Positions 22,703 through 58,774 of a stretch of DNA of 64,000 bases are shown piece after piece (positions within the stretch are counted from its first letter, which is position 1; each line of letters starts with the position of its first letter). Source of the DNA: Anaerolineae bacterium (GTDB lineage Bacteria; Chloroflexota; Anaerolineae; Aggregatilineales; Ch27); assembly GCA_013178165.1 (NCBI GenBank), contig JABLXG010000001.1, forward strand, positions 17,605 to 81,604. Direction: 5' to 3'. The notes under the pieces are model-generated. The model saw nothing but the letters and a program-made list of their open reading frames with translations. It was not told the origin of the DNA and did no database searches. Both the position numbers and the translations under genes were made by a program.

Positions 22703-22738
22703 GGGTGCGTGGTCCAAATCTCCGGCGGAACAGGACAG

Positions 22739-22773: not shown

Positions 22774-22790
22774 AGTGACATTAACTGTGC

Positions 22791-24171: not shown

Positions 24172-24203
24172 GAGGGCCGGCTGCTGCGGTAGCACCGGCC
24201 CTC
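24172..24203 (-). terminator. Hairpin immediately 3' of tRNA-Phe (terminator or processing signal)
   Basis: GAGGGCCGG...CCGGCCCTC 9-bp stem with an inner TGCT/AGCA pair; no clear U tract. Confidence 0.5.
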
Positions 24204-24205
24204 TG

Positions 24206-24278
24206 TGCCGAGGCCCAGACTTGAACTGGGGACCCCTTGATTTTCAGTCAAGTGCTCTACCAACTGAGCTACCTCGGC
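24206..24278 (-). tRNA. trnF: tRNA-Phe (GAA), CCA not encoded
   Basis: GCCGAGGTAGCTCAGTTGGTAGAGCACTTGACTGAAAATCAAGGGGTCCCCAGTTCAAGTCTGGGCCTCGGCA: 7-bp acceptor stem, CTTGA/TCAAG anticodon stem around GAA, TTCAA T-loop. Confidence 0.96.
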
Positions 24279-34423: not shown

Positions 34424-35197
34424 ATGAGTGATAGACCTGAGCCAGAGCCTGTCCCTGAGATTCCCTCCCAGCCGCTTTCAATGACGGATGCGCTGGCTAC
34501 GCTGAGTCAGGGTGTCATTCAGGATGATCACGGGGTGTTGCCGTGGGGATCGAACTACGCCTATCTGGTCACGGTTGCTGATGAGCGTCGCGCTTTGCTG
34601 GCAGTATACAAACCCCAGCGCGGTGAAAGGTCGCTGTGGGATTTTCCAGATGGCACGTTGTGCTACCGCGAGGTGGCGGCCTATGTCGTTTCGGAAGCGC
34701 TGGACTGGGCCATTGTGCCGCCTACAGTGTTGCGCGGCGGGCCTTACGGCCTGGGATCGCTCCAGTTCTTTGTTGATCACGATCCGGAGATCAACTACTT
34801 TACGCCCCTGCCGCCGGAATGCGGGGAACAACTGCAACGCATGGCCGTTTTTGACTACCTGATCAACAACGCGGATCGCAAGGGCGGGCATTGCCTGCTG
34901 GATTCACAGGGGCATCTGTGGGGAATCGATCACGGCGTGTCATTTCACTATCAGCTCAAGTTGCGAACCGTGATCTGGGATTATGCCGGGCAACCGCTGC
35001 CTGAGCCGATTGTGGACAGTCTGAAGGCGCTGGACACCGTGCTAAGCGACCCGGCGACATTGCTTCGCCAGACGCTGGGGGGCTTGCTGTCTGCCCGTGA
35101 GGTTGATGCATTGCTGGCGCGGTTGCACCATCTGTTGCAGACACGGCGGTTTGTCCTGCCGGGCAGGGGGCCAAATTATCCCTGGCCGCCAGTCTAG
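34424..35197 (+). CDS. SCO1664-family PI3/4-kinase-like protein
   Basis: GSNYAYL, AVYKPQRGERSLWDF, REVAAY, NNADRKGGH and WGIDHGVSF. Confidence 0.9.
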   Translation: MSDRPEPEPVPEIPSQPLSMTDALATLSQGVIQDDHGVLPWGSNYAYLVTVADERRALLAVYKPQRGERSLWDFPDGTLCYREVAAYVVSEALDWAIVPPTVLRGGPYGLGSLQFFVDHDPEINYFTPLPPECGEQLQRMAVFDYLINNADRKGGHCLLDSQGHLWGIDHGVSFHYQLKLRTVIWDYAGQPLPEPIVDSLKALDTVLSDPATLLRQTLGGLLSAREVDALLARLHHLLQTRRFVLPGRGPNYPWPPV

Positions 35198-43698: not shown

Positions 43699-44904
43699 TC
43701 AACTGTCCGCAGTGCGCTTTTGCCAGGTAACGTGCTGGGTGCCGCGCGCCCAGCGCCACAGCCCGACCAGGGCGGCCAGATTGGAGCTGACGAAGAAGTA
43801 GATGACATTGAGCAGGCGATAATGCCTGCCGCGCCGTTCCGCCAGCCAGCCAGCCAGCGCCAGGCCATAAAAGGCCAGCTGGCCCAGCAGGATCAGCCCT
43901 CCCCACCAGCCGCGCAACAACAACGCATCTTCCAGAAAGTGGCCTGTCATTGGCTGGCTCAGCAGGACAGCAAGCAGATTGGCCAGGAGGATGAGCAGCA
44001 TCAATACCGGCGTGAGCGGGCGCAATAGCTTATGGGAGAACAATCGGAAGGCAAGTCCTGGAGTGGGGGCTTTGAGGTATCCGGCAGAGAACAGCGCCTG
44101 ATAGCGCCCGGCATTGATACGCACCCGACGATTGAACTCGTCGCTCATCGTTGCGCTGGCGTCGTCGTAGCTGATGGCGTCCGGCTCATAGACGACGCGA
44201 TAGCCCTGTCGCAGGACTTCCATCGCGATGCTGAATTCGTCGTTGATGATTCCGGTGCGCAATGGCCGGAACAAAGCCCGCCGGATGGCGAACATGTTGC
44301 CGTGAACAGCAACAGTGCTGCCAGTCTTGCTTTCCCAACGGCGCAGGGCGGCCTCATAGCGCCAGTACAGGCCGGCAGGCTTGGCGACAGCGGTGGCGGC
44401 ATCCCAGACAGCTAGTGTTCCCACCACAACGCCAACGGTGGGATCAGCGAAGCGTCGGGCCAGGATGCGCAGGCTCTCGGATTCGTAGCTCGGTGAGGCG
44501 TCACTCAAGACCACGATCTCACCAGTCGCGTGGGCAAAGCCAGTATTGACGGCAGCCATCTTTCCCCCGCGAAAGGGTTGCTCAATCAGTGTGACGCCGC
44601 GCACGGCGAATTCCCGCACGATGTCCGGCGTGCCATCGGAGCTGCCATCGTCGACCACCAGAATTTGCAGCCTGTCTCGCGGATAATTCAGCGTGAGGCT
44701 GTTGTTCAACTTGCGGCGGATGACATCAGCCTCGTTGTGAGCCGGGATCAGCAGGGTGAGGGTTGGCAGGCTGTCCGGGGCGGTGACTGGCGGAGTGCGT
44801 TTACCCCGCGCCAGGAGATACATAAATAGTGGGTAGCCGAAGTAGGTCCACAGGAAGGCAGCTACACAGATCCAGAAGATAAATACGAGAATGGGCAGGA
44901 TCAC
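43699..44904 (-). CDS. Glycosyltransferase family 2, membrane-bound
   Basis: LIPAHNE, VVDDGSSD, VLSDAS, INDEF and RRVRINAG; TM helices at both ends. Confidence 0.9.
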   Translation of the reverse strand: MILPILVFIFWICVAAFLWTYFGYPLFMYLLARGKRTPPVTAPDSLPTLTLLIPAHNEADVIRRKLNNSLTLNYPRDRLQILVVDDGSSDGTPDIVREFAVRGVTLIEQPFRGGKMAAVNTGFAHATGEIVVLSDASPSYESESLRILARRFADPTVGVVVGTLAVWDAATAVAKPAGLYWRYEAALRRWESKTGSTVAVHGNMFAIRRALFRPLRTGIINDEFSIAMEVLRQGYRVVYEPDAISYDDASATMSDEFNRRVRINAGRYQALFSAGYLKAPTPGLAFRLFSHKLLRPLTPVLMLLILLANLLAVLLSQPMTGHFLEDALLLRGWWGGLILLGQLAFYGLALAGWLAERRGRHYRLLNVIYFFVSSNLAALVGLWRWARGTQHVTWQKRTADS

Positions 44905-44927
44905 AGTCTCTCACCGGAATTGAGTTG

Positions 44928-46625
44928 TCAGCGCGCACCTTGCCGCTTGAGCACTTGCCCAATTGTACGCAGCATAATCTGAATGTCCAATGCGAAGCTG
45001 ATTTTGTCGATATAGAGCATGTCCCAGCGTAGCCAGTCGTCAAAGTCAGTGCTGCCCCGCGCCCCGATCTGCCACAGGCCGGTGATCCCAGGGCGGACCG
45101 TCAGGCGTTCGGTATGCAACAGGGTATAACTATCCAGCCCCCAGCTGGTGGGTCTGGGTCCAACGATACTCATATCGCCGCGCAGCACGTTGAAAATCTG
45201 CGGCAGTTCATCCAGGCTCGTCTTGCGGAGGATGCGGCCTACCCGCGTCACACGCGGATCACGGGCGAGTTTAAGCGGCTCGGCTAATTTGCCATCCGGG
45301 CCAAGTTTGGCCAGCCCCTGAGCGGCCAACTCCTTGAGTTTGGCCTCGGCATCAGGAACCATGGTACGGAACTTGTACATTTTAAAACGCCGGCCACCCA
45401 GCCCGGTGCGCTGCTGCACAAAGAAGATCGGGCGGCCTCCGTCGAGGTAGACCAGCAGCATCAGGACGAGCATCAGCGGCACGGTAACCGGCATGCTGAT
45501 TACCACCAGGGTGATGTCGATCAGGCGCTTGAGCACCATGTATACCAGACGGGCGCTGGCACTCTGGTATGGCAGCTCGTTAACCCAGAAATCGGGGTCA
45601 TTAGGGTGTTGGCTGCCTGAAGAGGAGGGACGCGGCTGGTCAGCGTAGTCTGTGGGCAGAGGCTGAAAGAGTTGCCTGATCCAGGAGACGGGCTGTATGG
45701 CGCTGGCGGAACGTTTTGTGGCAGTCTCTGCGGTTGCCTGCCTGGATGAGGGTGGGACAACCGCGGAGACCAGTTGATCGCTACGCGCGCCACCCTGCGG
45801 TGGACGCTGCTGATCCTCAGGCTGCAAGGGGATGGGATGCAGCAGGGCAGCATCCAGTAGATCGCGGTAGATGAGACCGTCCTCCGGGAAGGCGGCGACG
45901 CCCACGGCTACTTCCAGGCCCAGGCGCATCTTGATCAGGGTATGAATCTGTCGTGCCAGGCGGATCGCCTGCTCGCGGTCGGTCTCTGGCAGGCAAATCA
46001 CCAGGTTGTCGCCGCTCCAGGCGATGGTATCGCTGCGGTAGATGGCCGACATGGCGATCTGAGCGATGCGCACCTTGAGGTAGCGCTTCTGGAAAGCCGC
46101 CTCCAGGTTGAAACGATCGGTGATGTGTTCCTGCATCTCTTCAAGCCATTCCACCCGCAGGGCGACAAACCCCACCGGGCGGTCGAAGCGTCGGGCGCGG
46201 AACAGCTCATTGTTGATCTTCTCCTCACCTTCGGCCTCGGAGAGCACGCTTGACTTCTCTGGGGTAAGCAGCACGTTCTCAATGGCCTTCTCAATGTTGG
46301 CTGTGGCCAGTGAGATAACACGGGCTACGGAAACGGTCAGGATCAGGACGACTACCTCGGTAATGATCAACGGCAGGGGGGTGTCCGGGTGACCGATCGT
46401 CACTTTGGCAAGGCCGTACAGGATCAGCGTAGGTATCAATACGTACTCTGAACGCTTGCCCAGGTCTGGCAGGGCCAGGATGGTGACAGCGACCATGGCG
46501 GCGATGACATAGACAAAGGAGTCCAGGTCGATGTTGCCGAAATCCTGAATGTCTGGCCGTTCCAGATTGAACAGAATTACCAGCCAGATTGTCAGACCGA
46601 TGAGCAGGAGTCGGAACCTAGCCAT
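44928..46625 (-). CDS. Priming sugar transferase (WcaJ/CpsE-like) fused to an N-terminal TM bundle and a degenerate GGDEF-like domain
   Basis: C-terminal [52 protein letters not shown] and RPGITGLWQ. Middle domain [11 protein letters not shown]...[18 protein letters not shown]...[10 protein letters not shown]. Confidence 0.88.
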
Positions 46626-46835
46626 GTGTTTGAATCCTTCTAACGTTACATCTAATCCGGTGTTGATCCTGCGCGAGTGCAGGACGTGTTTGCCTGAAGG
46701 TTGGAGTAGGCGTGTATGCTGGCAGGAATGACGGTGGCAGGAGATGCCTTTAATTTATCTTAACAATTTTCCGCTTACGGCGCTGTGAATTTTTCCTAAA
46801 ATCACCGGTTATATCGAGTCATGCTGGTACCAGGA

Positions 46836-46844
46836 TGCTATAAT
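46836..46844 (+). promoter_or_regulatory. Extended -10 promoter-like site pointing antisense into the kinase gene
   Basis: TG-C-TATAAT, within an 11-mer (ATGCTATAATG) identical to the one at 24377-24387. Confidence 0.4.
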
Positions 46845-46858
46845 GCGGCAGGACATTC

Positions 46859-47971
46859 TTAATGTAGAGTCTGATTGATCTTTACCATCCAGGATGCCAT
46901 GATGCGGTAGAACGTCGGGTTGACAATCCAGCGTTGGACCGGTATCCGCCACACTGCATGCCGACCGTTGAATGTTCTTCGCAGGGCTTCCAGGCTTTCC
47001 AGCCATTTCTGCAGCAGGAAACGGCCTTCGTAAAGCGCCAGGAGCAACGGTTCGGGCTGACTGCCGGCGAAGTAGCCTGCCAGGAAGGCTTGACTGAGTG
47101 CGTCGATCATCGCTGGCGTGGGGAAGGTGGCCAGCGAAAGAAGACGCGCCCGGCGGCTCTTAAGATCGGCTACCAGCTTGCCCAGATCGTAGTAGGGACT
47201 GTCCAGTCGATCAAGCGCTGTATCCATGCTTACAACGCTCTGGTCAGGGAGCAGGAAGAAATTACGCGCATGTAAGTCTCCATGCACCCAGACCTGGCGG
47301 TCATCGCTTACCTGCTGCAGGGCGGTGAGGGTCGGCTGCCAGAGCGGCCAGCTTTCTAAGTCCACGCCGCAGGCGCGGAGTTGCTGGACATGTTCCAGCA
47401 GGATAGCCAGGCTATCCGCCGGACCAAAACACCGATCGGCTGGCGCGTTGTCAACGGGCAGCTCATGTAACCAATGCAGCCACTTTCCGCAGCGCTGTAG
47501 CATGTGCATCGCTTGCTTCATCCCCTGGCGGCTGAGCAAATGGCGTGGTGACAGGTTGTTGTCATATAATGGCTGGCCAGGGACAAAGTCCATGATCAGA
47601 GCGTTGATGTCCGGGAGATAGGCTTCCGGGTGGACTGCGCGCAGGTGTGGATCATCCTGTCGGAGGAAATGCCGGTAAACCCGCAGCAGGCTTTCGTACT
47701 CGTGTTGGCCGCGAAGCAGCAACTCTTCGGACTGATACGACACCGCTGCAGTGGCCTGGTCAGGGAAGCGCATGATCTTGACGACCAGCTGGCGTTGTTG
47801 CTGTTTCGTTCCGATGGTCAGGAAGTACAACGTGCTCCAGGGTTTTGTGATGACGGTCGGAGGACGCTGTAACTGCCAGGGGGATGGAAGCGGGTGTTTC
47901 CCATTGAAGTAAGCAAGGACAGCACTGATGGTAGCTTCGGGGGGAAGAAATGTTTCAGGTTTGAATTTCAT
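46859..47971 (-). CDS. Aminoglycoside-phosphotransferase/Kdo-kinase-like kinase
   Basis: LVVKIMRF, LIMDFVPG, WVHGDLHARNF, SMDT and DLGKLVADL. Confidence 0.78.
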   Translation of the reverse strand: MKFKPETFLPPEATISAVLAYFNGKHPLPSPWQLQRPPTVITKPWSTLYFLTIGTKQQQRQLVVKIMRFPDQATAAVSYQSEELLLRGQHEYESLLRVYRHFLRQDDPHLRAVHPEAYLPDINALIMDFVPGQPLYDNNLSPRHLLSRQGMKQAMHMLQRCGKWLHWLHELPVDNAPADRCFGPADSLAILLEHVQQLRACGVDLESWPLWQPTLTALQQVSDDRQVWVHGDLHARNFFLLPDQSVVSMDTALDRLDSPYYDLGKLVADLKSRRARLLSLATFPTPAMIDALSQAFLAGYFAGSQPEPLLLALYEGRFLLQKWLESLEALRRTFNGRHAVWRIPVQRWIVNPTFYRIMASWMVKINQTLH

Positions 47972-48002
47972 CTTTATAACCGTTTAAATGCGATATTTAA
48001 TG

Positions 48003-48008
48003 TATAAT
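48003..48008 (+). promoter_or_regulatory. -10 element of the right-arm EPS promoter
   Basis: TATAAT in an AT-rich divergent intergenic region; no clear -35. Confidence 0.45.
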
Positions 48009-48078
48009 ATCGCCCGTTTTTCCGGATGAATGAGTTCTTTCGATTTTTGACTGGCCAAGCAAACAGAAGAGAGTTCCC

Positions 48079-49350
48079 ATGGAACTGCGTCAATATCTGC
48101 GTATTATACTGAGAAGCTGGTGGTTCATCATCCCAGTGACGCTGATCGCCCTGACGGCGTCCCTGGTATTCAGCTATGCAACCACCCCGATCTACCGCGC
48201 CGCATCGTCGTACGTGGCGGGCCTGGCCCCGGATGTTGGGGCTTCCTCTGATGCGATTATCTACGGCCTGGATACCCTGGCCGGTCGAGAACGCATCTTC
48301 TCGACCTATTGCGGCGTGCTTAACAGCCACAATGTGCGGCAGGACGCCTATCGCCTCATGGGGGTGAGCGATCCGGCAGGGCTGGGCCTGGACGACTATG
48401 TTGTCCAGTGCAATGTTCTGCCCGATTCCAACATCCTGTTGCTTATTGTGGAAGGCCCGGCGCCCACGCTGGTTACAAGGCTAAATGAAGCTGTTGGGTT
48501 GGCCGGGATGGCCCAGACCAACCGGCTATACCGACCGTTCCCGCTAGAACGGCTCGATCCGGTTGTCTTGGAGCCAGAGCCGGTGTCACCGAACTACACA
48601 CAAAATGCGGTGCTGGGCGCGGTACTGGGTCTGGTGCTGGGGATCACGCTGGCATTTGTGGTGGAGTATCTGCGCAGCCCACTCGAACGTATCGAGGGAC
48701 TGACCATCCGGGACCCGAAGCTCGGCGTGTACAACGAGCGCTACTTCCTCAGGCGGTTTGAGGAAGAGATCAAGCGGGCGCGGGTACGCAACCGTCCGAT
48801 CAGTCTGGCCTTCACCCAGCTGGTGCCGGATGAGGACTTCAACCTTCTGGAAGAGCGTGTGCAGGACGCGCTGCTACGTCAGGCGGCTCTGTTTATGCAG
48901 GATTCGCTGCGAGAGGGTGACATTGTGGCCTATTTTGGCCAGCATGTCTTTGGCTTGCTGTTCGCCGAGACGCCGGGGGATGAGGCCAGATCGATGCTGG
49001 TGAACATGCACTATGATATCCGGTCACGCACCTTCCGGTTTGAGGATTTCAGCGCCAGCTTTGAGGCTAAGTCCGGTGTGGTGGAGAGCAGCGGTGGGCT
49101 GCTGGGTACGCAGGCGATGATGGACAAGGCGGCTGAGGCGCTGAGAGATGCGGAACTGGCCGGGGAGAATGCCATCCAACTCATCCGTACGTCGCCGGCG
49201 CCGTTTATCCAGGGCGATACTACCGGTGCTGCGACACCTACGCTGGCGTTTGACGCTTCTCCGCTGGATGACACACTGGGAACGACCTGGAGCACGGGGA
49301 ATCAGCCCCCTGTCTTTGATTCGGAACCTGAGCTACGGGAAGATCAGTAA
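48079..49350 (+). CDS. Wzz/CpsC-like polysaccharide co-polymerase fused to a degenerate GGDEF domain with an RxxD site
   Basis: N-terminal MELRQYLRII.RSWW...TPIYRA, and PVSPNY..NAVLGAVLGL..G before TM2. C-terminal DPKLGVYNERYF, EIKRAR.RNRP.SL, LREGDIVAYFGQHVFGLLFAET and AGEN. Confidence 0.85.
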   Translation: MELRQYLRIILRSWWFIIPVTLIALTASLVFSYATTPIYRAASSYVAGLAPDVGASSDAIIYGLDTLAGRERIFSTYCGVLNSHNVRQDAYRLMGVSDPAGLGLDDYVVQCNVLPDSNILLLIVEGPAPTLVTRLNEAVGLAGMAQTNRLYRPFPLERLDPVVLEPEPVSPNYTQNAVLGAVLGLVLGITLAFVVEYLRSPLERIEGLTIRDPKLGVYNERYFLRRFEEEIKRARVRNRPISLAFTQLVPDEDFNLLEERVQDALLRQAALFMQDSLREGDIVAYFGQHVFGLLFAETPGDEARSMLVNMHYDIRSRTFRFEDFSASFEAKSGVVESSGGLLGTQAMMDKAAEALRDAELAGENAIQLIRTSPAPFIQGDTTGAATPTLAFDASPLDDTLGTTWSTGNQPPVFDSEPELREDQ

Positions 49351-50909
49351 TGGCTGATCGCGTGTTAGTCAGTCCTGGAAAAGATATCTGGCAGTATCTG
49401 GATGACCGCCGGGTGCGCTACCGGTTGCTGGTGACCGGATTTGCGCTGCTGATGATCATCGTGGCACTCATCGGCGGCTATTTGATTGGCACAACTGACT
49501 ATGACTACGCGGTTCTCTTCGGGGTCATCGGGGTAGTTGTGGCGATGCTCGTTGCCGTACGGCCAGTGCTGGGTGTGTACATCCTGACCATCACCGTGTA
49601 TCTCAACCTGTCTGATCTTCTGGAGATCAACCTGGGTATTCCCAGCGCCAACAAGTGGCTGGTTGCCCTGATCTTCGTTGGTGTGGTTGCCAACCATATC
49701 GTGCTGTATCGGCGTCCGCTGGCCCTGGGCAGAACGCAATGGCTTATCATCATGTACGGGGTCCTGCTGTTGATAGGGGCGTTGCAGGCTGAGGAACAGT
49801 CTGTGGCAGTTTCCCAGTTCACTGATTGGGTGAAGGATTTCGTCATCCTGTTTATCGTCGTGCAGGTGACCATCAACGCTCGAGTCTGGATGCGCATGCA
49901 ATGGTTGTTGATCCTTTCTGCGGGGTTAGTGGCGGCGCTGAGCGTCTACCAGATCGTGACCAACGATGTGGGCAATACGTTCTGGGGACTGGCCAAAGCG
50001 CCAGTGCATCAGATTACTAGCGGGTTTGATAGCACCCGTGTGACAGGTCCGCTGGATGATCCCAATTTCTACGCCCAGATTTTGCTGATGGTCTTTCCGC
50101 TAGCAGTGTACCGATTTCTTGAGGAACGTTTCCTTGTCCTTCGCGTAATGGGTGGCGTGGCGGCGGCATTGATCGCGGCTGCGGCGATCTTTACCTATTC
50201 GCGCGGTGCGCTGATTTCGCTGGCGGTGATTGGGATACTGGTCACCCGTGAGCGACAGTGGAGTCCTTATAAGGCTGCGGTGATTGCGGTTGCTGTGGCG
50301 GTCGTACTGGTGGCTATCTTTCCAGTGGGCTACTGGGAACGTTTTGTGCAGTTGCGCGACCTTTTTGTGTCGGACACAGAGTTGCAGACAGAACGCTCCC
50401 TGCGCGGACGCACGAGTGAGATGATCATCGCCTGGCAGATGTTCCTGGATCACCCGCTGCTGGGGGTCGGGCCGGGGAACTACGACAAGAACTACCTTGA
50501 CTACTCATTTCTGCTGGGCATTGACAGCCGACTGCAGGAACGGCAGGCGCATAGTCTGTACCTTGAGACCGCGGCGGAGCTAGGGGCGGTCGGTCTCGCT
50601 GTGTTGTTCGGCATAATCCTCAGTACGTTTGCCAGCCTGCGCAGCGCAAAGCGTATGTTGAAGGCCAGCCATCGATCAGACCTGATACCCTGGGTGACTG
50701 GTCTGCAGTACGGTTTTACGTCGTATCTCATCACCAGCATATTTCTGCATGGTGACTACATTCGATACTTCTGGCTTCTGCTGGCTTTTGCTCTTTCCAG
50801 CGAAGGGATAGCGCGGTCGTTGCTGCAACAACACCGGGCACGGAGGGAACGCGAGGCGGCGGGGAACCAGAATCTGTTTGTCTTGCGGGAAACAGTACGG
50901 ATTTCGTAA
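49350..50909 (+). CDS. O-antigen ligase/Wzy polymerase-family membrane protein
   Basis: About 12 TM helices; R..G...DPNFYA, TYSRGA, HPLLGVGPGNY and AHSLYLETAAELG. Confidence 0.85.
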   Translation: MADRVLVSPGKDIWQYLDDRRVRYRLLVTGFALLMIIVALIGGYLIGTTDYDYAVLFGVIGVVVAMLVAVRPVLGVYILTITVYLNLSDLLEINLGIPSANKWLVALIFVGVVANHIVLYRRPLALGRTQWLIIMYGVLLLIGALQAEEQSVAVSQFTDWVKDFVILFIVVQVTINARVWMRMQWLLILSAGLVAALSVYQIVTNDVGNTFWGLAKAPVHQITSGFDSTRVTGPLDDPNFYAQILLMVFPLAVYRFLEERFLVLRVMGGVAAALIAAAAIFTYSRGALISLAVIGILVTRERQWSPYKAAVIAVAVAVVLVAIFPVGYWERFVQLRDLFVSDTELQTERSLRGRTSEMIIAWQMFLDHPLLGVGPGNYDKNYLDYSFLLGIDSRLQERQAHSLYLETAAELGAVGLAVLFGIILSTFASLRSAKRMLKASHRSDLIPWVTGLQYGFTSYLITSIFLHGDYIRYFWLLLAFALSSEGIARSLLQQHRARREREAAGNQNLFVLRETVRIS

Positions 50910-50983
50910 GCGTTCGTTGTTGTGTCGGCCAGGGCGGTCAGTCAGTAAGCTGCTGCCCCCAACTATAGATAGAGAAGAATTCG

Positions 50984-53900
50984 ATGAGACTCCAGGTGCG
51001 TTTAGCTTCCCTTGCATTGTTAAGCGGTCTTGTAGTGCTCATACTGGCGGTCATCCCCGGCGTTACTGCCCAGAATCCGACCCCTACTTTGACACCTACC
51101 CCGGTTCCTTTGCCGGCCTGCCAGCTCTACTACGTGACTGTGGACGAAGGTGTGGTGCGCTCCTGCGCAGGAACGGGTTGCAGCAGAGTGGGTGGTGTGC
51201 GCAACCAGGAGGTTGTGTGCGTTCTGGGCGTTTCAGAGACGCCGGGCTGGCTTCTGATCGATCCAGAACCACAGAATGCTGATTCCCCGATTCGCTATAT
51301 CAGCGCTGACATTGTAGCTCCTGGTCTGCCTGGCTATACCGGGGATGTTGACTGCGAAGCCTGGGAGATCACTGTGCCGGAAGCTGTTGTCCGGCGCTGC
51401 GCGGCGGAAACCTGCGCTGTGGTGGGTGGGTTGCCACAGGGCACCCAGATGTGTGTGAAGGAGTACGGTGGCCAGTACGAAGACTGGCTGTATGTCGATT
51501 ATTCCAGCTATAGCCCGATGAATGGCTGGGTTTTCGTTGATGTTGCCCAGCGCATCCCTGCCGGGACTCCGGTCGCTATTCCTACGCCCAATCGGCCGCT
51601 GGTCATCCCGGCGTCGATCCTCAGCGGTGCACAGACTCAGCCGGTCGCTCTGCAGGTAACACCCTCCCCGACCACTGCTGTGGAACTTGCGCCGCCGACC
51701 CTCACGCCAACGGCCACACTTCCGGTTTGTCCGCCAGGAGTGGTGACAGTAGGTGGAGCGGGCGAGCTCCCCGCCTATGCAGCGGAGTATCCATTCCAGT
51801 TCACCTACGTTGTACGTGCTGGAGACACGCTTCAGGGGGTAGCCGGTCGATTCTCTACAACCGTAGACGTGATTCGTCAGGCCAATGCCCTGCAACCAGC
51901 CGCGGTTATCCTGGTAGGGCAGCGGCTTATCATTCCGGTGCAGACAGCAGATGTCCCCGGACAGATCGTGGAGCCTGTGTCAGCCAGCGCTGGTGCGCCG
52001 GCCTGCGTGACCGCAACGCCCACTCCCATTCTGGCGGCGCCTCAGCAGGTGGTGGCCAGTGGCCCCCTGATTGCGCAGGACGTCGCTCTGGCCAGCTTCC
52101 AGGTGAGCAATGTTGATCTGGTTTCGCCACGGAGTGCTGCACAGTTCCGGCTGGACTTGCCTACCGATTGGCAGCTGGATGGTAACAACGTTCTGTACCT
52201 CAACCTGGAGTACACGCAGAATCTCTCGCCGCTTGCTGATCCCATGCGCCCGCTGGTGAGCATCCTCAATGTCAGGCTGGATGACACGCTGATTTCCTCC
52301 ACGACACTGACGGCTGCCAACGTGGGGTTACAGACGCTGGTGATCCCGTTGCCCTCGTCGCTGTTAGTCACGCCTGAACGGACTAACAGCCACCGGATCG
52401 ATGTCACCTTTATGGCGGATGATTTCTGCGACAGTAACTCGCTTGCCAGGGCGTTCATTCGTTCGGACCTGTCATACTTCCACTTCGAATACCACCGGCT
52501 ATCTCCCAGCCTGGATCTGGCACGGTACCCGGAGCCGTTCTATCACGGGACGGTTATCGGCACCGAGCCGGAGACGGTATGGCTGGTTCTGCCAGATGAG
52601 CCTTCGCTGGCCGACCTGGAATCCGCAGCGGGTATTGCGGCGGCGCTGGGCCAGCTCACTTTTGGCGAATTGCGTATCCGTGCTGCACTGGCTGGCGGGT
52701 TGACCGATCAGATTCGCCGTGAGAACAACCTGCTGCTTGTCGGTGAGATCGGCAAGCATGCCCTGATCGATCAGTTGTATGCTGACAACGCTCTGCCAAC
52801 ACAGCTCAGCGGCAATGTGGTCAGGCTGAGCGGCCAGGAGGTAGCAGAATCGATCGGGCTTGTTCAACTCATTGCCAACCCGGATAACCCCATGCGCGCC
52901 ATCGGGGTAGTCACCGGTCTGAACGAAGCGGCGCTGCGCAAAGCAGCCCAGGCACTTTCTGGCCCGCCATCGGTGTTGAGCCTGGGCGGACCACTGGCGC
53001 TGGTCAGCGATGTGCGACCCAAGGCGGCAGTCCCGGTTGGCATGCGCACCGAAACCACGCTAACTTTTGCGGAACTTGGCGTGACGCAGATGCTGCTGGC
53101 CGGGATCGGCACACAGACAGCCAGTGTCAGGTTTACAGCGCCTGCCACGGCAACAATCGCCCCGGATGCCTCGGTTGATCTCATCTTCACCTATTCCGGG
53201 GCACTTGGCCGGGGTTCGACGGTGACCGTGTTGGTGAATAACACGCCCATCGCCAGTACGCTGCTGGCCCTGGAATCGGTTACCGGCGGCGTAGTGCACG
53301 AGACCGATGAGTTGGGCCGCAATCACCTGCGGGGGCGCATCCCGCCGGAAAGTATCCAGCCTGGCGCTGAGAATACGTTGACCATCCTGGTTAATGGCAT
53401 TGACAGTAACCCTGATGATTGCGTATTCCCCGACCCACTGGTTGCCTGGTTCAATGTCAGCCCGGAGAGTTCGATCTTCCTGCCTACCCAGACAGCTGAC
53501 CCGGCAGCCGTGACGCCGCTGTTAAGCTGGTTCCCGGTACCGTTTACCTCGCTGCCTGATCTCAGTGATGTGTTGATATCTTTGCCACGGGCGGCAGGCG
53601 CTACTGAGATCGAACAGGGTCTGCGGATGGTTGCGCGTCTTGGTGCGGAGACCGTTGGTGGGGAGGCGTTCCGCCCGCGGTTCAGCGTCGGAGACCTGCC
53701 GGAGGGGATCGACCTGGCCCAGTACCATCTGATCGTCATCGGGCGGCCGTCAACCAATCCGCTGCTGGCAGCTCTCAACGCTGATCTACCGCAGCCTTTC
53801 GTCCCGGGCACGGATACACTCGAGCAAAAGCTGGATGACGTAGTCTACCAGTTGCCACCCGGCTACGACGTTGGGTTGCTGGAGATAGTCAAGTCGCCCT

Positions 53901-54424
53901 GGTCACCGGAGCGAGCCATTCTGGTCATTGCCGGGTTGGGTGATCGCGGTCAGGCGGATGCCGTACGCGCCCTGGCGGATAACATCTACTGGCGTGGCGA
54001 TTTAGAAGGCGATGTAGTATTTGTCTCGCCGAACTCGATCGCTGTGATTGACACGCGTACGGTGTATGCGCAGGAAGATCTGGTGACGGCGTTGCCGGAA
54101 CTGGCCACCCAGTCGGCTATCGCGGCTCAGGCGACGAGCACCCCCATCCCGGTCTATACAGTAACACCCGGCCCAACGCCTACAGCAACTGCGACCAATA
54201 CACCGACACCGGTCGTTACCGCAACACCGATTGTTCCCTTGCCATCGCCGACGGCGCCGACACCGATCCCGACCTTCCCGCCGCTTGATCCGGAGCAACT
54301 GCAGCCCGCCCGGATCGGCCAGCCGGAGTGGGTCAATATCCTGCTGGTTATCACAGCGGTTGTACTGGTCACCACGATACTTTTCGGTATCCTGGTTGCC
54401 GCACGTTCCCGGAGGCGCCCTTGA
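50984..54424 (+). CDS. Cell-surface protein: two Cys-rich SH3b-like domains, LysM, BcsB-like repeats and a C-terminal TM anchor
   Basis: Signal peptide; LysM YVVRAGDTL...N.L...ILVGQRLIIP. Two jelly-roll plus alpha/beta repeats (QFRLDLP.DW...LNVRLDD...DLARYPEPF; LLSWFPVPF) as in BcsB, each followed by a ...LVIAG/VVTG strand. Ends with a TM helix and RSRRRP. Confidence 0.72.
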   Translation: MRLQVRLASLALLSGLVVLILAVIPGVTAQNPTPTLTPTPVPLPACQLYYVTVDEGVVRSCAGTGCSRVGGVRNQEVVCVLGVSETPGWLLIDPEPQNADSPIRYISADIVAPGLPGYTGDVDCEAWEITVPEAVVRRCAAETCAVVGGLPQGTQMCVKEYGGQYEDWLYVDYSSYSPMNGWVFVDVAQRIPAGTPVAIPTPNRPLVIPASILSGAQTQPVALQVTPSPTTAVELAPPTLTPTATLPVCPPGVVTVGGAGELPAYAAEYPFQFTYVVRAGDTLQGVAGRFSTTVDVIRQANALQPAAVILVGQRLIIPVQTADVPGQIVEPVSASAGAPACVTATPTPILAAPQQVVASGPLIAQDVALASFQVSNVDLVSPRSAAQFRLDLPTDWQLDGNNVLYLNLEYTQNLSPLADPMRPLVSILNVRLDDTLISSTTLTAANVGLQTLVIPLPSSLLVTPERTNSHRIDVTFMADDFCDSNSLARAFIRSDLSYFHFEYHRLSPSLDLARYPEPFYHGTVIGTEPETVWLVLPDEPSLADLESAAGIAAALGQLTFGELRIRAALAGGLTDQIRRENNLLLVGEIGKHALIDQLYADNALPTQLSGNVVRLSGQEVAESIGLVQLIANPDNPMRAIGVVTGLNEAALRKAAQALSGPPSVLSLGGPLALVSDVRPKAAVPVGMRTETTLTFAELGVTQMLLAGIGTQTASVRFTAPATATIAPDASVDLIFTYSGALGRGSTVTVLVNNTPIASTLLALESVTGGVVHETDELGRNHLRGRIPPESIQPGAENTLTILVNGIDSNPDDCVFPDPLVAWFNVSPESSIFLPTQTADPAAVTPLLSWFPVPFTSLPDLSDVLISLPRAAGATEIEQGLRMVARLGAETVGGEAFRPRFSVGDLPEGIDLAQYHLIVIGRPSTNPLLAALNADLPQPFVPGTDTLEQKLDDVVYQLPPGYDVGLLEIVKSPWSPERAILVIAGLGDRGQADAVRALADNIYWRGDLEGDVVFVSPNSIAVIDTRTVYAQEDLVTALPELATQSAIAAQATSTPIPVYTVTPGPTPTATATNTPTPVVTATPIVPLPSPTAPTPIPTFPPLDPEQLQPARIGQPEWVNILLVITAVVLVTTILFGILVAARSRRRP

Positions 54425-56619
54425 TGCCCTGCAGGATCTTCAGAGCAATCCTGATCATTCTGCTGGGGGTGGTAATTGGCTGTGAAGCAACCAGTGCGCA
54501 GAACGCACCGCTGACATGGTGGGTGGTGGGCAGTACAGTTAAGGTGCTGCCCACCGCCGTTCCTCCTGCACAGCCAGAAACACCTATCCTCCTGTATGCG
54601 GCGCGGCGGGAGTACGTCCCCTTCCAGATTGTGCTGCGTGCCAACCAGATCGCGCTCAAGTTTGATGCGCTTTCCGTGTCCTATCCTGAGGAGTACTTCG
54701 GCCTACAGCTCTATCGTGAGCAGTATGTGCCCATGTTGCATGTTCCGGATCCGGAGATAGTCTCGCTGGCCCGCCTGACGGACGCGGGCGCTATCCCTGA
54801 TGGATTGCGCCCATTTGATAGCCCCTTTGAGGTGCGGACTGAGCAACCCACCGTCATCTGGGCTGATCTCTATGTGCAACCGGAGACACCGCCGGGGGAC
54901 TACACGTTAACGCTGACCATCAAAGGCATGGGCGAACGCCGCGTTACGGTTCGTGTATACCCGGTTGATCTGGAACCGCAACCGGCGGTGACCGTGATCA
55001 TCCCTGAAGACGCTGACTGGACGATCCCCTTCTTTGGTGGCGATGATCCGACAGCTTTCCACCGGGCGATGAATACCTTGCTGCTGGCGCATGGTGTGGT
55101 ACCGGGGACTTTTGTGGCCCAGCCCGTAATGATAGCGGATGGCTGGGATTTCTCGCCGCTGGATGCGGAACTGGATGCGCTTCCGACAGGGGCCTTCTTC
55201 TATGCGCCCCTGCCGTACGACGATCGCTCCGGGCAGTATCTGTTGCGGGATGAACATGGCCGGCCTTATCAACAGGCCATGTTCGACGACCCACAGTTTG
55301 TTCGCCAGGCGGAAGCTTTCTTCCGCGCGCTGGCGGACTATCTGCGTAGCAAAGACCGCCTGGAAGGGGCGCTGGTATACCCGGATGATGAGACGCGCTG
55401 GGTTGGCGATGAACCATGGCATGCCGGGCCGCGTGGATATGCCCGGCTGTCCCGGTGGACGGCAATAGTGCGGGTGGCAGGGTTGCGCGTGACGGCTTCC
55501 GGCGTAGATCCGGTGCCGCCTGGCCCGGCTGAGCTTGGCTGGCTGGACCCCGATCTGGTGACTGATGATACCCACGTGCATGTGGATGTGCTGGATGCGG
55601 CACCGGAGGTTTTTGCGGCCTGGATGTCCAGGCCGGGCAAGAGCAGCAGCGTATACCTGAATGAATATGGCGATCTGATTGACCTGACAGCAGCGATCCA
55701 GCGTGGCCTGATCTGGCATGTCTACGCCAGGGATGTGCGGATGATTGCCGGATACTCGGCGCTGGAATGGGTAGGCAGCGAAGACTACGATCTGGTGGAC
55801 CCGTGGCAGGACGTGACGGCGCTGTACCCGGTATCCGGTTACGGCGGTGGTGCGCTGGTCTGGCCTGGGCCGCAGCCCTCAATCCGCCTGAAACTGTTGC
55901 GGGAGGGCCTGGAAGACACTCGCCTGCTGGACCTGTATGCGCAGGCCACTTCGCCTGAGGAAGCCCGCGACCTGGCCAGGCAGCTCACTCCCGGCCCGCT
56001 GGCCCACCAGAACCCGCCCGCTGATCTCTGGGATCAGGCACATGAGGCCTTGCTGGTGGCGTTGACTGAGGGTGAACGGGCAGACTTCAGTAACTTCCGC
56101 CCGCTGCCAGCGGCAATCACGCAAGACTACTTGCTGATCGATTTTGATCGGCTTGGCCAGCCAGAGGAATGGGGGTTCACCGGTGTGACGGCTGAAGTCG
56201 TTGAGTCGCCATGGGCGGAAAGCGGCCAAGCTCTTCGTCTTACATTTGATTCCGAAGCCAACGAGGCCGGGTTGTGGTTTGAAACGTCAGACTGGGAGGG
56301 GTGGCGGGCGCTGCAATTTGAGGTCAGGAGTCTCAGCCCTTACTTCACCACACTTGATGTTGGTCTCACAGATGCAGACGGACATTACCTGTTGTTGCCG
56401 GACAAAGGGCTGCTGCTAGGGCCGAACGCAGACATGACGGTCACCCTGCCGTTGCTGATTCCAATGGACGAGACGGAGCCTTTTGACTGGTCACAGATCA
56501 GGTATTTCAGCCTGCAGGTGGCAACTTCATATGAAGCGCGGGATGGATTCGGTCAGTGGGGTGTCTATCCGCTGGGGAGCCGTACCCTGATTCTTGATAA
56601 TTTCAGGCTGGTGAAATGA
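54424..56619 (+). CDS. Secreted DUF4091/GH123-like putative glycoside hydrolase with a C-terminal CBM-like domain
   Basis: Signal peptide; LYAARREYVPFQIVL, YPDDET, and G.LVWPG..PSIRLKLLREGLED. Start ATG 54424 overlaps the upstream stop. Confidence 0.7.
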   Translation: MPCRIFRAILIILLGVVIGCEATSAQNAPLTWWVVGSTVKVLPTAVPPAQPETPILLYAARREYVPFQIVLRANQIALKFDALSVSYPEEYFGLQLYREQYVPMLHVPDPEIVSLARLTDAGAIPDGLRPFDSPFEVRTEQPTVIWADLYVQPETPPGDYTLTLTIKGMGERRVTVRVYPVDLEPQPAVTVIIPEDADWTIPFFGGDDPTAFHRAMNTLLLAHGVVPGTFVAQPVMIADGWDFSPLDAELDALPTGAFFYAPLPYDDRSGQYLLRDEHGRPYQQAMFDDPQFVRQAEAFFRALADYLRSKDRLEGALVYPDDETRWVGDEPWHAGPRGYARLSRWTAIVRVAGLRVTASGVDPVPPGPAELGWLDPDLVTDDTHVHVDVLDAAPEVFAAWMSRPGKSSSVYLNEYGDLIDLTAAIQRGLIWHVYARDVRMIAGYSALEWVGSEDYDLVDPWQDVTALYPVSGYGGGALVWPGPQPSIRLKLLREGLEDTRLLDLYAQATSPEEARDLARQLTPGPLAHQNPPADLWDQAHEALLVALTEGERADFSNFRPLPAAITQDYLLIDFDRLGQPEEWGFTGVTAEVVESPWAESGQALRLTFDSEANEAGLWFETSDWEGWRALQFEVRSLSPYFTTLDVGLTDADGHYLLLPDKGLLLGPNADMTVTLPLLIPMDETEPFDWSQIRYFSLQVATSYEARDGFGQWGVYPLGSRTLILDNFRLVK

Positions 56620-57734
56620 CAGGCAGGCGAGACTACAGGGTGCTGCTGGTAGATCTGGCGCGGGCCTATGGGGGCGCAGAAGTCCGCGTGCTCACCCAGG
56701 CCAGGGCCTTGCAGGATGGCGTGGCACGGTGCGCTGTGGCAACGCTGGCAGGTAGCCCGCTACACCAACGGCTGATAGCAGAAGGCTTGCCGGCTGAAGC
56801 GATTGCCATCCAGCGTGGCAATCCGATCATGGCCGGTGTGCTGCGCCGAACCATCCGCGCTGGTCGCTACGAGGTTGTTGACGCCCACAATGTGCAGTCC
56901 ATCCTGTGGGGGCATCTGGCGGCGTTGCTGGCTGGGGCGCGGGGACGGGTGGCCACGATTCACAGCGACTATGGCCGGGAATATCCCGGCGTGAAGGGGA
57001 TACTCTATCGCAGCGTGCTCTGGTTCGACCGGCTCCTGGCCCGGCAGTATATCACCGTGACCGATGTGCTGCAGGCCAGTCTTACGGCCCGTGGCGATGG
57101 TTCCCGTAGTACCCTGATTTACAATGCAGTGCCAGTGCCGGAAGCGCCGTTGTTGTCAGTGGATCCGGCTGTGCGCCCGGCATGGGGAGTTGGCGCGGAT
57201 GATTTTGTGGTGGCGATCATTGCCCGCCTGAAACCAGTCAAGGGCCACTGGTATCTGCTGAAGGCCCTGGCGCTCCTGGCTGACCTGCCGCAGGTGAAGC
57301 TGCTGGTGGTGGGCGATGGCCCGCTGCGTCCGGCGCTGGAAGCGCAGGCGAATATGCTGGGGATTGCTGAGCGCGTGCACTTCTGCGGATTTGTGGAAGA
57401 TGTCCCGGCGGTTTTGCGGGCGGTCGATGCCGTCTGCCTGCCGTCGCTGTCAGAGGCGCTACCGTATGTAGTACTGGAAGCAGCCGCTTTTGCGCGGCCA
57501 TTGGTGGTCACGCAGGTGGGTGGGATGGCAACGCTCCTACGGGATGGCGAGACTGCCCGTGTGGTGCCGCCACAGGATGCGCCAGCTCTGGCGGAAGCCC
57601 TGCGCTGGGTAGCCACGCATCCCGTCGAGCGGCAGGCGATGGGTTTGGCTGCTTACGCGCTGGTCAAGGGTGCGTTCAGTGTGGAGACGATGGTGGCGAA
57701 GACGCTGCAAGTCTACGATCGAGCGCTGGCATGA
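56616..57734 (+). CDS. Glycosyltransferase family 4
   Basis: GGAEVRV, IARLKPVKGH, VVGDGPLR and PSLSEALPYVVLEA. Confidence 0.93.
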   Translation: MTGRRDYRVLLVDLARAYGGAEVRVLTQARALQDGVARCAVATLAGSPLHQRLIAEGLPAEAIAIQRGNPIMAGVLRRTIRAGRYEVVDAHNVQSILWGHLAALLAGARGRVATIHSDYGREYPGVKGILYRSVLWFDRLLARQYITVTDVLQASLTARGDGSRSTLIYNAVPVPEAPLLSVDPAVRPAWGVGADDFVVAIIARLKPVKGHWYLLKALALLADLPQVKLLVVGDGPLRPALEAQANMLGIAERVHFCGFVEDVPAVLRAVDAVCLPSLSEALPYVVLEAAAFARPLVVTQVGGMATLLRDGETARVVPPQDAPALAEALRWVATHPVERQAMGLAAYALVKGAFSVETMVAKTLQVYDRALA

Positions 57735-58774
57735 GCAAAGCACAGATTGCCTTTAAGGTACTTATAGCGCTCAGGGCTCCTGTTTTGCTGAATGCCTACT
57801 GGGGAGCCGACCGGTTGACCGTTCTGGCTTACCACCGGATCGCGGATCCGGCTGCGCCGGGGTTTCAGTACTATCCGCCGAATGTGAGCGCGACGCCGGA
57901 GAAGTTCGCCCAGCAGATGGCGTATATCCGGGAGCACTTCAATGTGGTCGACCTGGAAGCGGTGAACGCCTTCCTGCATCATGGCCGGAGCCTACCACCA
58001 CGCCCGCTGCTCATCACGTTCGATGACGGCTATCTGGATAACTACTCCCACGCCTATCCAGTATTGAAACACTACGGTTTCCCGGCGGTGATCTTCCTCC
58101 TAACCAGCCGCATGGATAACCCGCTGCCGGCATGGTGGGACGAGTGCGCCTATTACTTCCATCACACGCAGCGGCAGGCCGCCACCCTGCCTTTGATCGG
58201 TGAGCGCGACCTGTCGTCGCCGGCGTTACGCCGGGCAGCGTGTGAGGCGCTGGTAGGGCAGTTAAAGCGCATCCCTGAAGCGGAGAAACTGGTTGCGCTC
58301 CGGCAGGCGGGCGAAGCGTTGCAGGTTGATCCACCGGGGCCTGATCCCGATCTATTCATGGCCTGGGATCACGTCCGCGAACTGGTGAACGCAGGAATTG
58401 CCTGCCAGCCACACACAGTCACGCATCCCATCCTGGCGCGGGTTGATGAGGAAGTGCAGCGACGCGAGATTGTTGGCTCGTGCGAACGGATTCGAGAGGA
58501 GACCGGCCAGACGATCAGCGCATTTGCTTACCCAAACGGCGGCGTGGGCGATTACACAGCGACTACCATGCAGTTGCTGCGGCAAGCTGGCATCAGGACG
58601 GCGTTCACGCTGCTAACGGGCCCGCTGCGCTCACAGGTGGCGCGGCAGCATCCGCTGGAAATCCCGCGGGTGTACCTTGGCGGACGCGACACCATGGAGC
58701 GGTTTGTGTTCAAAGTGATGGGTCTGCCCGCGCTGATGGAGCACCCGCCTTTCATCGGCCAGGCCGCAGTATAG
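57731..58774 (+). CDS. Polysaccharide deacetylase (CE4/NodB)
   Basis: VLAYHRI, ITFDDGYLDN, HTVTHPIL and FAYPNG. Confidence 0.92.
   Translation: MSKAQIAFKVLIALRAPVLLNAYWGADRLTVLAYHRIADPAAPGFQYYPPNVSATPEKFAQQMAYIREHFNVVDLEAVNAFLHHGRSLPPRPLLITFDDGYLDNYSHAYPVLKHYGFPAVIFLLTSRMDNPLPAWWDECAYYFHHTQRQAATLPLIGERDLSSPALRRAACEALVGQLKRIPEAEKLVALRQAGEALQVDPPGPDPDLFMAWDHVRELVNAGIACQPHTVTHPILARVDEEVQRREIVGSCERIREETGQTISAFAYPNGGVGDYTATTMQLLRQAGIRTAFTLLTGPLRSQVARQHPLEIPRVYLGGRDTMERFVFKVMGLPALMEHPPFIGQAAV

Follow-up and report, generated by a model that had tools for sequence, protein, structure and literature searches.

The locus at positions 43699-58774 of a 64-kb stretch of DNA from an Anaerolineae bacterium of the phylum Chloroflexota (contig JABLXG010000001.1; the whole 64-kb stretch is called the window below) was analysed by profile searches, structure prediction and comparison of gene order. 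Its nine genes were read from their sequences as machinery, specific to Chloroflexota, that makes a polysaccharide of the cell surface or the extracellular space containing N-acetylhexosamine (HexNAc). The best explanation of the locus as a whole (probability about 0.5) is a Wzx/Wzy-type pathway for a HexNAc polymer, in which the polysaccharide co-polymerase (PCP) carries a catalytically dead GGDEF domain in place of a kinase and would sense cyclic di-GMP (c-di-GMP). Taken by itself, the assignment to a Wzx/Wzy pathway is likely.

Gene organization

An earlier annotation made from the DNA letters alone (the original prediction) had proposed these nine genes and their domains, and they were recovered from the list of open reading frames (ORFs), Pfam and NCBIfam. 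The features of the locus are:

43699-44904, minus strand: membrane glycosyltransferase of family 2 (GT2), 401 aa; Pfam Glycos_transf_2, Glyco_tranf_2_3 and Glyco_trans_2_3
44928-46625, minus strand: priming polyprenyl-phosphate glycosylphosphotransferase (PGT), 565 aa; Bac_transf at aa 366-560, E 3.5e-63
45831-46253, minus strand: GGDEF-fold domain of the PGT, about aa 125-265
46859-47971, minus strand: APH-like phosphotransferase, 370 aa, aminoglycoside/choline-kinase-like; Pfam APH, E 1.1e-8
47972-48078: divergent intergenic region of 107 nt between the two arms, presumed to hold promoters
48079-49350, plus strand: PCP-GGDEF, a Wzz/PCP-2b-like co-polymerase with a degenerate GGDEF domain, 423 aa; Pfam GGDEF, 41.6 bits
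48910-48951, plus strand: I-site and degenerate signature of PCP-GGDEF, R278-E-G-D281, five residues, G287-Q-H-V-F291
49350-50909, plus strand: Wzy_C/O-antigen-ligase-family membrane protein, 519 aa; Pfam Wzy_C, E 1.5e-21
50984-54424, plus strand: SH3_3, LysM and BcsB-like protein, 1146 aa; Pfam BcsB, E 1.6e-44
54424-56619, plus strand: putative hydrolase resembling glycoside hydrolase family 123 (GH123), 731 aa; predicted fold and PF13320 of its homologues
56616-57734, plus strand: glycosyltransferase of family 4 (GT4), 372 aa; Pfam Glycos_transf_1 and Glyco_transf_4
57731-58774, plus strand: polysaccharide deacetylase of carbohydrate esterase family 4 (CE4), 347 aa; Pfam Polysacc_deac_1, E 5e-23

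The junctions are 1-nt overlaps (at 49350 and 54424), 4-nt overlaps (56616-56619 and 57731-57734) and gaps of 23 and 75 nt. Such overlapping or closely spaced junctions are compatible with two divergent operons. Two further assemblies of the source organism, with gene calls made independently, showed the same genes, and contig JAIOAT010000001.1 of a metagenome-assembled genome (MAG) matched the window at 97% protein identity. A scan for promoter and terminator consensus sequences gave no excess over shuffled expectation and was uninformative. No c-di-GMP riboswitch was found in the window, where the sole RNA family detected was one tRNA.

Distribution and gene order in relatives

A word-indexed search returned 43 close homologues of PCP-GGDEF, and every one with a named source came under Anaerolineae or Chloroflexota. 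When 1.84 billion representatives were searched exhaustively with a profile, 381 family clusters (at 50% identity) had E <= 1e-30, nearly all of them full-length. Genome scans with three subgroups, of which subgroup A includes the window, yielded about 90 loci (numbered with the prefix L), all in Chloroflexota save for a few evidently mis-binned MAGs. The cluster is spread over Anaerolineae, Caldilineae and Herpetosiphonales, and genomes often have it in more than one paralogous version. Cultured carriers are Herpetosiphon aurantiacus DSM 785, H. geysericola, H. giganteus, H. llansteffanensis, Longilinea arvoryzae and Pelolinea submarina; MAGs labelled Anaerolinea thermophila and Caldilinea aerophila were also among the loci.

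Gene content was compared by tblastn, the window proteins being the queries. The counts are confined to full-flank loci, which extend for at least 9 kb to either side; there were nine of these in subgroup A and 34 in subgroup C:

Wzy: 8/9 in subgroup A, 31/34 in subgroup C
Wzx: 2/9 in subgroup A, 34/34 in subgroup C
BcsB-like protein: 9/9 in subgroup A, 24/34 in subgroup C
Membrane GT2: 3/9 in subgroup A, 20/34 in subgroup C
GT4: 8/9 in subgroup A, 31/34 in subgroup C
CE4: 8/9 in subgroup A, 6/34 in subgroup C
PGT, catalytic part: 2/9 in subgroup A, 32/34 in subgroup C
PGT, N-terminal GGDEF-like part: 2/9 in subgroup A, 25/34 in subgroup C

In subgroup C, the genes mostly follow the order PGT - GT4 - PCP-GGDEF - Wzy - Wzx - GT4s - GT2 - BcsB. 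The Wzy_C gene stands directly after the PCP-GGDEF gene in 8 of the 9 subgroup A loci and in 31 of the 34 subgroup C loci. Three loci of the window's own subgroup (L005, L019 and L020) have PGT-GT2-Wzx directly upstream of the PCP gene, and Wzx is also present in the cluster of L004. A different order, with BcsB directly after PCP-GGDEF and without Wzy, was found in some loci (L110, L115-L118; group B). The association of these genes is far beyond chance, their set being repeated in 90 independent loci. Co-occurrence in other genomes had been named in the original prediction as a check on its candidate system; the genes do co-occur, and they form one conserved polysaccharide system. The proposal of a Wzy-type pathway is supported as well, the clusters of relatives holding the flippase that the window lacks.

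Two observations on these loci are added here. L076, L079, L103 and L116 are MAGs labelled Syntrophothermus, Bacteroidota, Nitrosomonas and Micrarchaeota that hold typical Chloroflexota PCP-GGDEF/Wzy/Wzx loci, and binning contamination is the most likely origin of these labels. In L002, positions 5160-9664 upstream of a group-A cluster encode a ParA/CbiA-like ATPase (252 aa), a Ser/Thr protein kinase and a 651-aa protein with weak APH and TCAD9 matches. These are possible alternative regulators; no homologue of them was found in the window.

The co-polymerase and its I-site

PCP-GGDEF has two transmembrane (TM) helices by hydropathy (aa 7-25 and 177-195), separated by about 150 external residues and followed by the cytoplasmic GGDEF domain. 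This topology, with a Pro/Gly-rich segment before the second helix (TM2), is that of a PCP. Matches to GNVR and to the TM2 region of Wzc were weak; a Herpetosiphon orthologue reaches 35.2 bits for Wzz, and PF02706 is precomputed for most homologues. No P-loop kinase domain was found in PCP-GGDEF with Pfam or NCBIfam, and the kinase expected of a PCP-2 system was likewise missing as a partner, no homologue of bacterial tyrosine kinases (BY-kinases), ParA or CpsD being found by tblastn in the 64-kb window.

The GGDEF domain was aligned residue by residue to DgcR (6zxm). Its signature reads GQHVF where DgcR has GGEEF, and the first metal-binding Asp is replaced. The I-site motif RxxD is canonically spaced (R278-E-G-D281, five residues, G287), as in DgcR (RKSD...GGEEF). 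Among the aligned family members, GG[DE]EF was found in 0/173, and RxxD was kept in 132/173 (29/40 close homologues and 103/133 profile-search representatives). An 8-sequence alignment of group C showed RxxD to be invariant (ELRGxDxxGRW), along with nearby Arg residues. The fusion of Wzz with a degenerate cyclase domain that the original prediction had described is therefore upheld by Pfam, by the TM helices and by the alignment to 6zxm. GTP sensing at the A-site, as in degenerate GGDEF domains of the PdeA type, was considered and ruled out by the loss of the metal-binding Asp and of the whole signature. To judge from these residues, whether the window's PCP domain senses c-di-GMP is an almost even call.

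The priming transferase and its GGDEF fold

The PGT consists of three TM helices, a degenerate GGDEF-fold domain, a disordered linker and a WbaP-type catalytic domain. Pfam gave a sub-threshold GGDEF match at aa 186-257 (E 0.0055). Residues 1-270 were modelled with AlphaFold2 (AF2) from a 42-sequence alignment, at a pLDDT of about 90, as three TM helices and an alpha/beta domain. The top 50 PDB matches of that domain were all GGDEF domains (Foldseek; E 3.7e-8, probability 1.00, TM(target) 0.7), so that the earlier label of a GGDEF-priming transferase is correct. Likeness to WbaP is limited to the catalytic half (8t53, E 4.7e-41, aa 357-564). The N-terminal extension is common to more than 100 homologues, almost all of them Chloroflexota-labelled records.

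This domain is more degenerate than that of the PCP. Its signature is SGDNL, with a one-residue deletion, and its I-site position reads YRSD, where the family consensus is LYxxD, without RxxD. As we read the alignment, the invariant R143 is the counterpart of PleD R313, a secondary c-di-GMP contact. An active-cyclase signature is missing from both domains (GQHVF in the PCP, SGDNL in the PGT), and both are read, from sequence and model, as real GGDEF domains that are catalytically dead. Control by c-di-GMP had been proposed at initiation as well as at polymerisation; with YxxD in place of RxxD, the case for initiation is weak.

In Anaerolineae, the PGT and the GGDEF-like module form one fusion protein; in Herpetosiphon, the module has an adjoining gene of its own, a link of the Rosetta-stone type. 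In L097 (H. aurantiacus DSM 785, CP000875 4488670-4509752; locus positions 5988-7566), the separate GGDEF-like TM module has 291 aa. The downstream priming-transferase frame of this locus is seemingly broken, with a shift near 7000-7060, and the same alignment is continuous in other Herpetosiphon species (L100-L102, L120 and L123). Either the gene is a pseudogene in this strain, or the break is an error of sequencing.

Proteins acting on the polymer

The Wzy_C protein has at least 10 TM helices by hydropathy. No solved relative of it was found by sequence in a PDB search, and from its family and its place it is presumed to be the repeat-unit polymerase.

The BcsB-like protein has a signal peptide, two SH3b-like repeats, LysM, the BcsB region, a Pro/Thr linker and, at its C-terminus, a TM anchor (aa 1122-1140) that bears a short basic tail; this is the topology of BcsB. 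The BcsB region (PF03170, aa 368-940) scored 152.7 bits against a cut-off of 21, LysM matched at E 2e-10, and NCBIfam BcsB models covered aa 626-1028. A BcsB-like protein with wall-binding modules had been predicted, and the signal peptide, the LysM/SH3b modules and the anchor agree with it. Two seemingly alternative layouts were seen around this gene: two tandem BcsB-like paralogues without a GH123-like gene (L002, L005, L013-L016 and L018), and one BcsB-like gene with a GH123-like gene (the window, L001, L004 and L009).

The gene next to it had been called a DUF4091 hydrolase. The 731-aa protein itself matched nothing in Pfam or NCBIfam, and its start is ATG 54424, as independent gene calls agree, not the mechanically listed GTG 54328. 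The hydrolase assignment itself was kept, because homologues carry PF13320 (DUF4091/GH123_cat) and because of the predicted fold. The AF2 model (pLDDT 93, pTM 0.91) has the GH123 fold, with an N-terminal beta-sandwich and a TIM barrel, and resembles the beta-N-acetylgalactosaminidases and hexosaminidases 8k2j, 8k2g, 8p4l, BvGH123 and CpNga123 (Foldseek; E down to 7e-27, TM(target) 0.7), with a beta-sandwich like that of CBM11 at the C-terminus. The family profile matched the PDB at E 3.5e-45, D329-E330-P331 being aligned to ADEP/WDEP. E330 and P331 are invariant in the family, and D329-E330 of this DEP motif is the candidate catalytic pair. From model and sequence, the protein is a putative secreted or anchored GH123-like beta-N-acetylhexosaminidase.

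The closest named models of the CE4 protein were PgaB (E 1.2e-24) and IcaB (E 4e-12), both below their equivalog cut-offs in NCBIfam. The GT4 protein is 58-62% identical in distant group-A loci and scored 45 bits against the PelF model (cut-off 100). With a GH123-like hydrolase and a PgaB/IcaB-like CE4, the polymer would be expected to contain beta-linked HexNAc, partly de-N-acetylated.

Proposed mechanism

Homology and synteny suggest that the WbaP-type transferase would prime polyprenyl phosphate and that the GT4 enzymes and the membrane GT2 would lengthen the lipid-linked unit. The unit would be exported by a Wzx flippase, encoded within the cluster in most relatives and presumably outside the window here, and joined into a chain by the presumed Wzy_C polymerase beside the PCP. 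Outside the membrane, the anchored BcsB-like protein, a probable partner of the membrane GT2, would guide or hold the nascent chain across the wall; in the source organism, its wall-binding modules LysM and SH3b would tether it to peptidoglycan. The CE4 protein and the GH123-like beta-N-acetylhexosaminidase would be placed to remove N-acetyl groups from the polymer and to trim it.

In PCP-2 proteins, the cytoplasmic end carries or recruits a BY-kinase, and in the Wzc and CapAB systems a phosphorylation cycle controls oligomerisation. Here, the cytoplasmic end would instead offer a dead GGDEF domain with RxxD where the BY-kinase normally docks or sits. Binding of c-di-GMP would change the oligomerisation of the PCP or its coupling to Wzy, and polymerisation would be switched or tuned in this way, c-di-GMP taking the place of tyrosine phosphorylation. 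Such switching is proposed because the I-site has been kept while the active site drifted, as in proven receptors such as PssE. The RxxD-less domain of the PGT would more likely dock with the PCP domain than sense c-di-GMP on its own.

Several observations weigh against this explanation. The Wzz score of the window's PCP (24.3 bits) lies just below the Pfam cut-off of 25.5. RxxD is absent in 11/40 members of the window's own subgroup, and the residue equivalent to PleD R390 is N309 in the window's PCP and variable in group A. No Wzx homologue was found in the window by tblastn or in the Pfam survey, nor any cyclase or phosphodiesterase (GG[DE]EF, EAL or HD-GYP), and a canonical RxxD-GGDEF cyclase lies within 10 kb in only 3/90 loci, including that of Pelolinea (L107). 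Wzy_C proteins may be ligases and not polymerases. The GT2-BcsB gene pair resembles the BcsA/BcsB module of a synthase and is needless in a pure Wzx/Wzy model. The absence of a flippase, a BY-kinase and an active cyclase from the locus had been noted in the original prediction, and these searches extended it to the whole window. c-di-GMP signalling is present in Chloroflexota, and canonical GGDEF cyclases exist in carrier genomes, for example in that of L107.

The sole cyclic-dinucleotide-related gene in the window is 28682-30958 (plus strand), encoding a protein with 7TMR-HDED, 7TM-HD and HD regions of the PgpH/YqfF type (c-di-AMP phosphodiesterase family), followed by a diacylglycerol kinase (31298-31981, plus strand). 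An HD-GYP assignment of this HD protein was rejected: it is a PgpH-type 7TMR-HD protein, unrelated to c-di-GMP.

Alternative explanations

The pathway could be the same and the nucleotide play no part. The GGDEF domains would then be a nucleotide-free platform for oligomerisation or docking, e.g. in a PCP-PGT heterodimer. An A-site that is dead in all members would fit such a scaffold, as would the loss of RxxD in about a quarter of the family, the above subgroup included, a PGT domain that lacks RxxD and yet is conserved with invariant residues, and the rarity of linked cyclase genes. Against a scaffold speak a canonically spaced RxxD kept throughout most of a highly diverged family (the 132 of 173 sequences above) while the adjoining signature drifts freely, the invariance of RxxD and the nearby Arg residues in the group-C alignment, and a pattern that matches proven I-site receptors (PssE). 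It is considered rather unlikely.

Another proposal concerns the role of the polymer and not the mechanism, and can therefore hold together with the Wzx/Wzy explanation. The product would be a housekeeping envelope polymer of filamentous Chloroflexota, a sheath or wall-linked heteropolysaccharide, with the GGDEF domains tuning its synthesis to growth. Conservation across the three Chloroflexota lineages, often in paralogous versions, and the peptidoglycan-binding LysM and SH3b modules speak for it, and the walls of Herpetosiphon and Chloroflexus carry covalently bound heteropolysaccharide. On the other side, no LCP-family ligase or wall-linkage enzyme was found in the locus with Pfam or NCBIfam, and the pairing of a hydrolase with a deacetylase is typical of adhesive exopolysaccharide (EPS) systems such as poly-N-acetylglucosamine (PNAG), Pel and Pss. 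Its probability is similarly low.

A system of the synthase type (Pss/Yda/Bcs-like) was weighed on the evidence of the membrane GT2. In such a system, GT2 and BcsB would polymerise and translocate the chain, the GGDEF protein would be an activator like PssE or YdaK, and PGT, GT4 and Wzy_C would make and ligate a lipid-linked primer or anchor. The GT2 gene is the best conserved of the locus (62-77% identity in distant group-A loci). Its product is polytopic, with one N-terminal and three to four C-terminal TM helices by hydropathy, and 31 orthologues share the motifs DGSxDxT, SDA, INDE (TED-like) and RRxRIxAGRYQ (QxxRW-like). Matches to the NCBIfam models PgaC_IcaA and CelA were weak. The closest solved relative is 6yv7 (E 1.5e-34), which reportedly has a "minimal cellulose-synthase-like fold", is non-processive and uses a lipid-linked acceptor. 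It is a crenarchaeal mannosyltransferase with a TM region of three helices (PMC10569066).

The polytopic layout, the two synthase-like motifs and the fold of this relative would suit a synthase. The GT2 gene also lies directly upstream of the BcsB-like gene in many group-C loci, PCP-GGDEF is followed by BcsB in the Wzy-less loci, and GT2, BcsB, degenerate GGDEF, CE4 and hydrolase together mirror the Listeria pss set. Against a synthase stands, first, the presence of Wzx, Wzy, PCP and PGT together in nearly all full-flank group-C loci, none of which a synthase needs. All 31 orthologues have Ile at the Trp position of QxxRW (RRVRI), 6yv7 is reportedly non-processive with a lipid-linked acceptor, and no GT2 lies within 10 kb in 6/9 group-A loci that retain Wzy and BcsB. 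PilZ was not found with Pfam among the nine locus proteins or the other surveyed ORFs of the window. The earlier statement that the locus has no BcsA/PilZ protein thus holds for PilZ and is doubtful for BcsA, the polytopic GT2 being possibly BcsA-like and encoded beside BcsB in many relatives. A synthase-type system is unlikely, and the Wzx/Wzy-type pathway with a dead GGDEF domain on its co-polymerase is preferred.

Finally, a third, hybrid type of assembly line is improbable. In it, c-di-GMP would act as a molecular staple that holds initiation, flipping and Wzy polymerisation in one complex, and a BcsB-like crown, docked on a half-channel GT2, would stand in for the periplasmic conduit of Wza/PCP and lead the chain through the wall of the monoderm; if this were true, Chloroflexota would have swapped tyrosine-phosphorylation cycling for assembly driven by a second messenger.

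Neighbouring genes

The APH-like gene, first on the minus arm, is accessory: it stands beside the cluster only in close relatives (L001, L009 and L011) and is found elsewhere in the locus in 6/64 group-C loci. The minus strand also encodes, 117 nt beyond the downstream end of the membrane GT2 gene, a GH31 glycosidase of 888 aa (40915-43581). It was rejected as a member of the system, as it does not stand beside the cluster in L004 or L005; it is probably outside the system, and co-transcription here is possible.

Positions 10187-17985 (plus strand) encode a Mre11-like phosphoesterase, a Rad50-like SMC protein with a zinc hook (1004 aa), a NurA nuclease, a 203-aa ORF and a HerA helicase, i.e. 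an archaeal-style HerA-NurA-Mre11-Rad50 end-resection module in a Chloroflexota genome. Within 18227-24278, secreted SH3b and LysM proteins are encoded at 18227-19522, 19611-20504 and 22791-24053, together with a sigma-70-family factor (20497-21243), a 528-aa ORF without family match (21182-22768) and a tRNA (24206-24278). A 257-aa protein at 34424-35197 (plus strand) matches the PI3/PI4-kinase family (E 2e-9), which is unusual for a bacterium.

Significance

Most bacterial capsules and O-antigens and many EPS are made by Wzx/Wzy pathways. To our knowledge, these pathways have a single well-established post-translational switch, the cycle of the tyrosine autokinase in the co-polymerase. It appears that an entire phylum has exchanged this kinase for a dead cyclase bearing an I-site, with a second such fold on the priming enzyme. 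If this is true, an alternative control logic is possible, and the family would offer a tractable way to study how a PCP communicates with the polymerase through its cytoplasmic end. BcsB-like proteins would also be extended from synthase systems into a Wzy context. The locus is, moreover, a conserved envelope/EPS locus in Chloroflexota. These filamentous organisms are abundant in hot springs, sediments and activated sludge, and their sheaths and flocs are of importance there. With cultured carriers in Herpetosiphon, Longilinea and Pelolinea, the idea is testable.

Comparison with known systems

The pssA-E/PssZ system of Listeria monocytogenes, which makes a c-di-GMP-inducible ManNAc-Gal EPS, is alike in being a monoderm operon with a membrane GT2, a BcsB-like protein, a CE4 protein and a dedicated glycoside hydrolase (PMC4125290); ydaJKLMN of B. 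subtilis is its equivalent. PssE is likewise a TM-anchored GGDEF protein with a dead signature (DKDDA) and RxxD five residues upstream; it binds two c-di-GMP per protein with a Kd of 0.8 µM and is essential for EPS (PMC4125290). Pss differs in having no priming phosphotransferase, Wzx, Wzy or PCP, and the membrane part of PssE is not Wzz/PCP. The hydrolase is GH8 there and GH123-like here, and the second GGDEF fold on the priming enzyme is found here.

With Wzx/Wzy systems of the PCP-2 kind (E. coli Wzc; CpsC/CpsD and CapA/CapB of Firmicutes), the locus shares a WbaP-type PGT, Wzy_C beside a two-TM PCP that has a Pro/Gly-rich motif ahead of TM2, and Wzx in relatives. The short external PCP domain resembles PCP-2b of Firmicutes. 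The locus differs in lacking a BY-kinase domain or partner, in the degenerate GGDEF domain at the cytoplasmic end of the PCP, and in the addition of BcsB-like proteins and a CesA-like membrane GT2. The N-terminus of the PGT also has three TM helices and a GGDEF fold, whereas WbaP has four TM helices and a regulatory domain.

Pel offers PelD, an inner-membrane receptor with a degenerate GGDEF domain and an I-site that gates its polymer, as well as the GT4 PelF, the MOP-family transporter PelG and the hydrolase/CE4 protein PelA. PelD, however, combines GAF with GGDEF and has no PCP domain, and Pel lacks PGT, Wzy and BcsB. Given the GH123-like fold of an N-acetylgalactosamine (GalNAc)-releasing enzyme in the model, a GalNAc-rich cationic product, as in Pel, is plausible.

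BcsA-BcsB shares with the locus an extracytoplasmic BcsB-family protein with a C-terminal TM anchor, whose gene lies beside that of a polytopic GT2 in many relatives. The GT2 here is half the size, has no PilZ and reads RRxRI for QxxRW, and the BcsB-like protein has LysM and SH3b added. Since the predicted product contains HexNAc, it would not be cellulose.

The holdfast of Caulobacter crescentus is a HexNAc adhesin of the Wzx/Wzy type under post-translational control by direct c-di-GMP binding through HfsJ/HfsK (PMC11481889, PMC5362036), and it includes a deacetylase step. Its receptors are a soluble glycosyltransferase and an acetyltransferase, not a PCP or PGT, and it has no GGDEF-fold receptor and no BcsB. 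The contrast drawn in the original prediction, by which post-translational c-di-GMP control belongs to synthase systems, overlooked this case and is overstated.

The locus had also been put forward as a new system. No description of a PCP-GGDEF fusion, of a fusion of PGT with a GGDEF fold, or of BcsB within a Wzx/Wzy cluster was found in the literature searched, the coverage of which is incomplete. Its close analogues had gone uncited, i.e. PssC-PssD(BcsB)-PssE of Listeria (PMC4125290), YdaK-N, PelD and HfsJ of Caulobacter. Each element has a precedent: I-site GGDEF receptors in PelD, PssE and YdaK, monoderm BcsB-like proteins for polymers other than cellulose in PssD and YdaN, and c-di-GMP control of a Wzy-type pathway in HfsJ/HfsK. 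The locus is best seen as varying on kinds already known, and not as a system in a category of its own.

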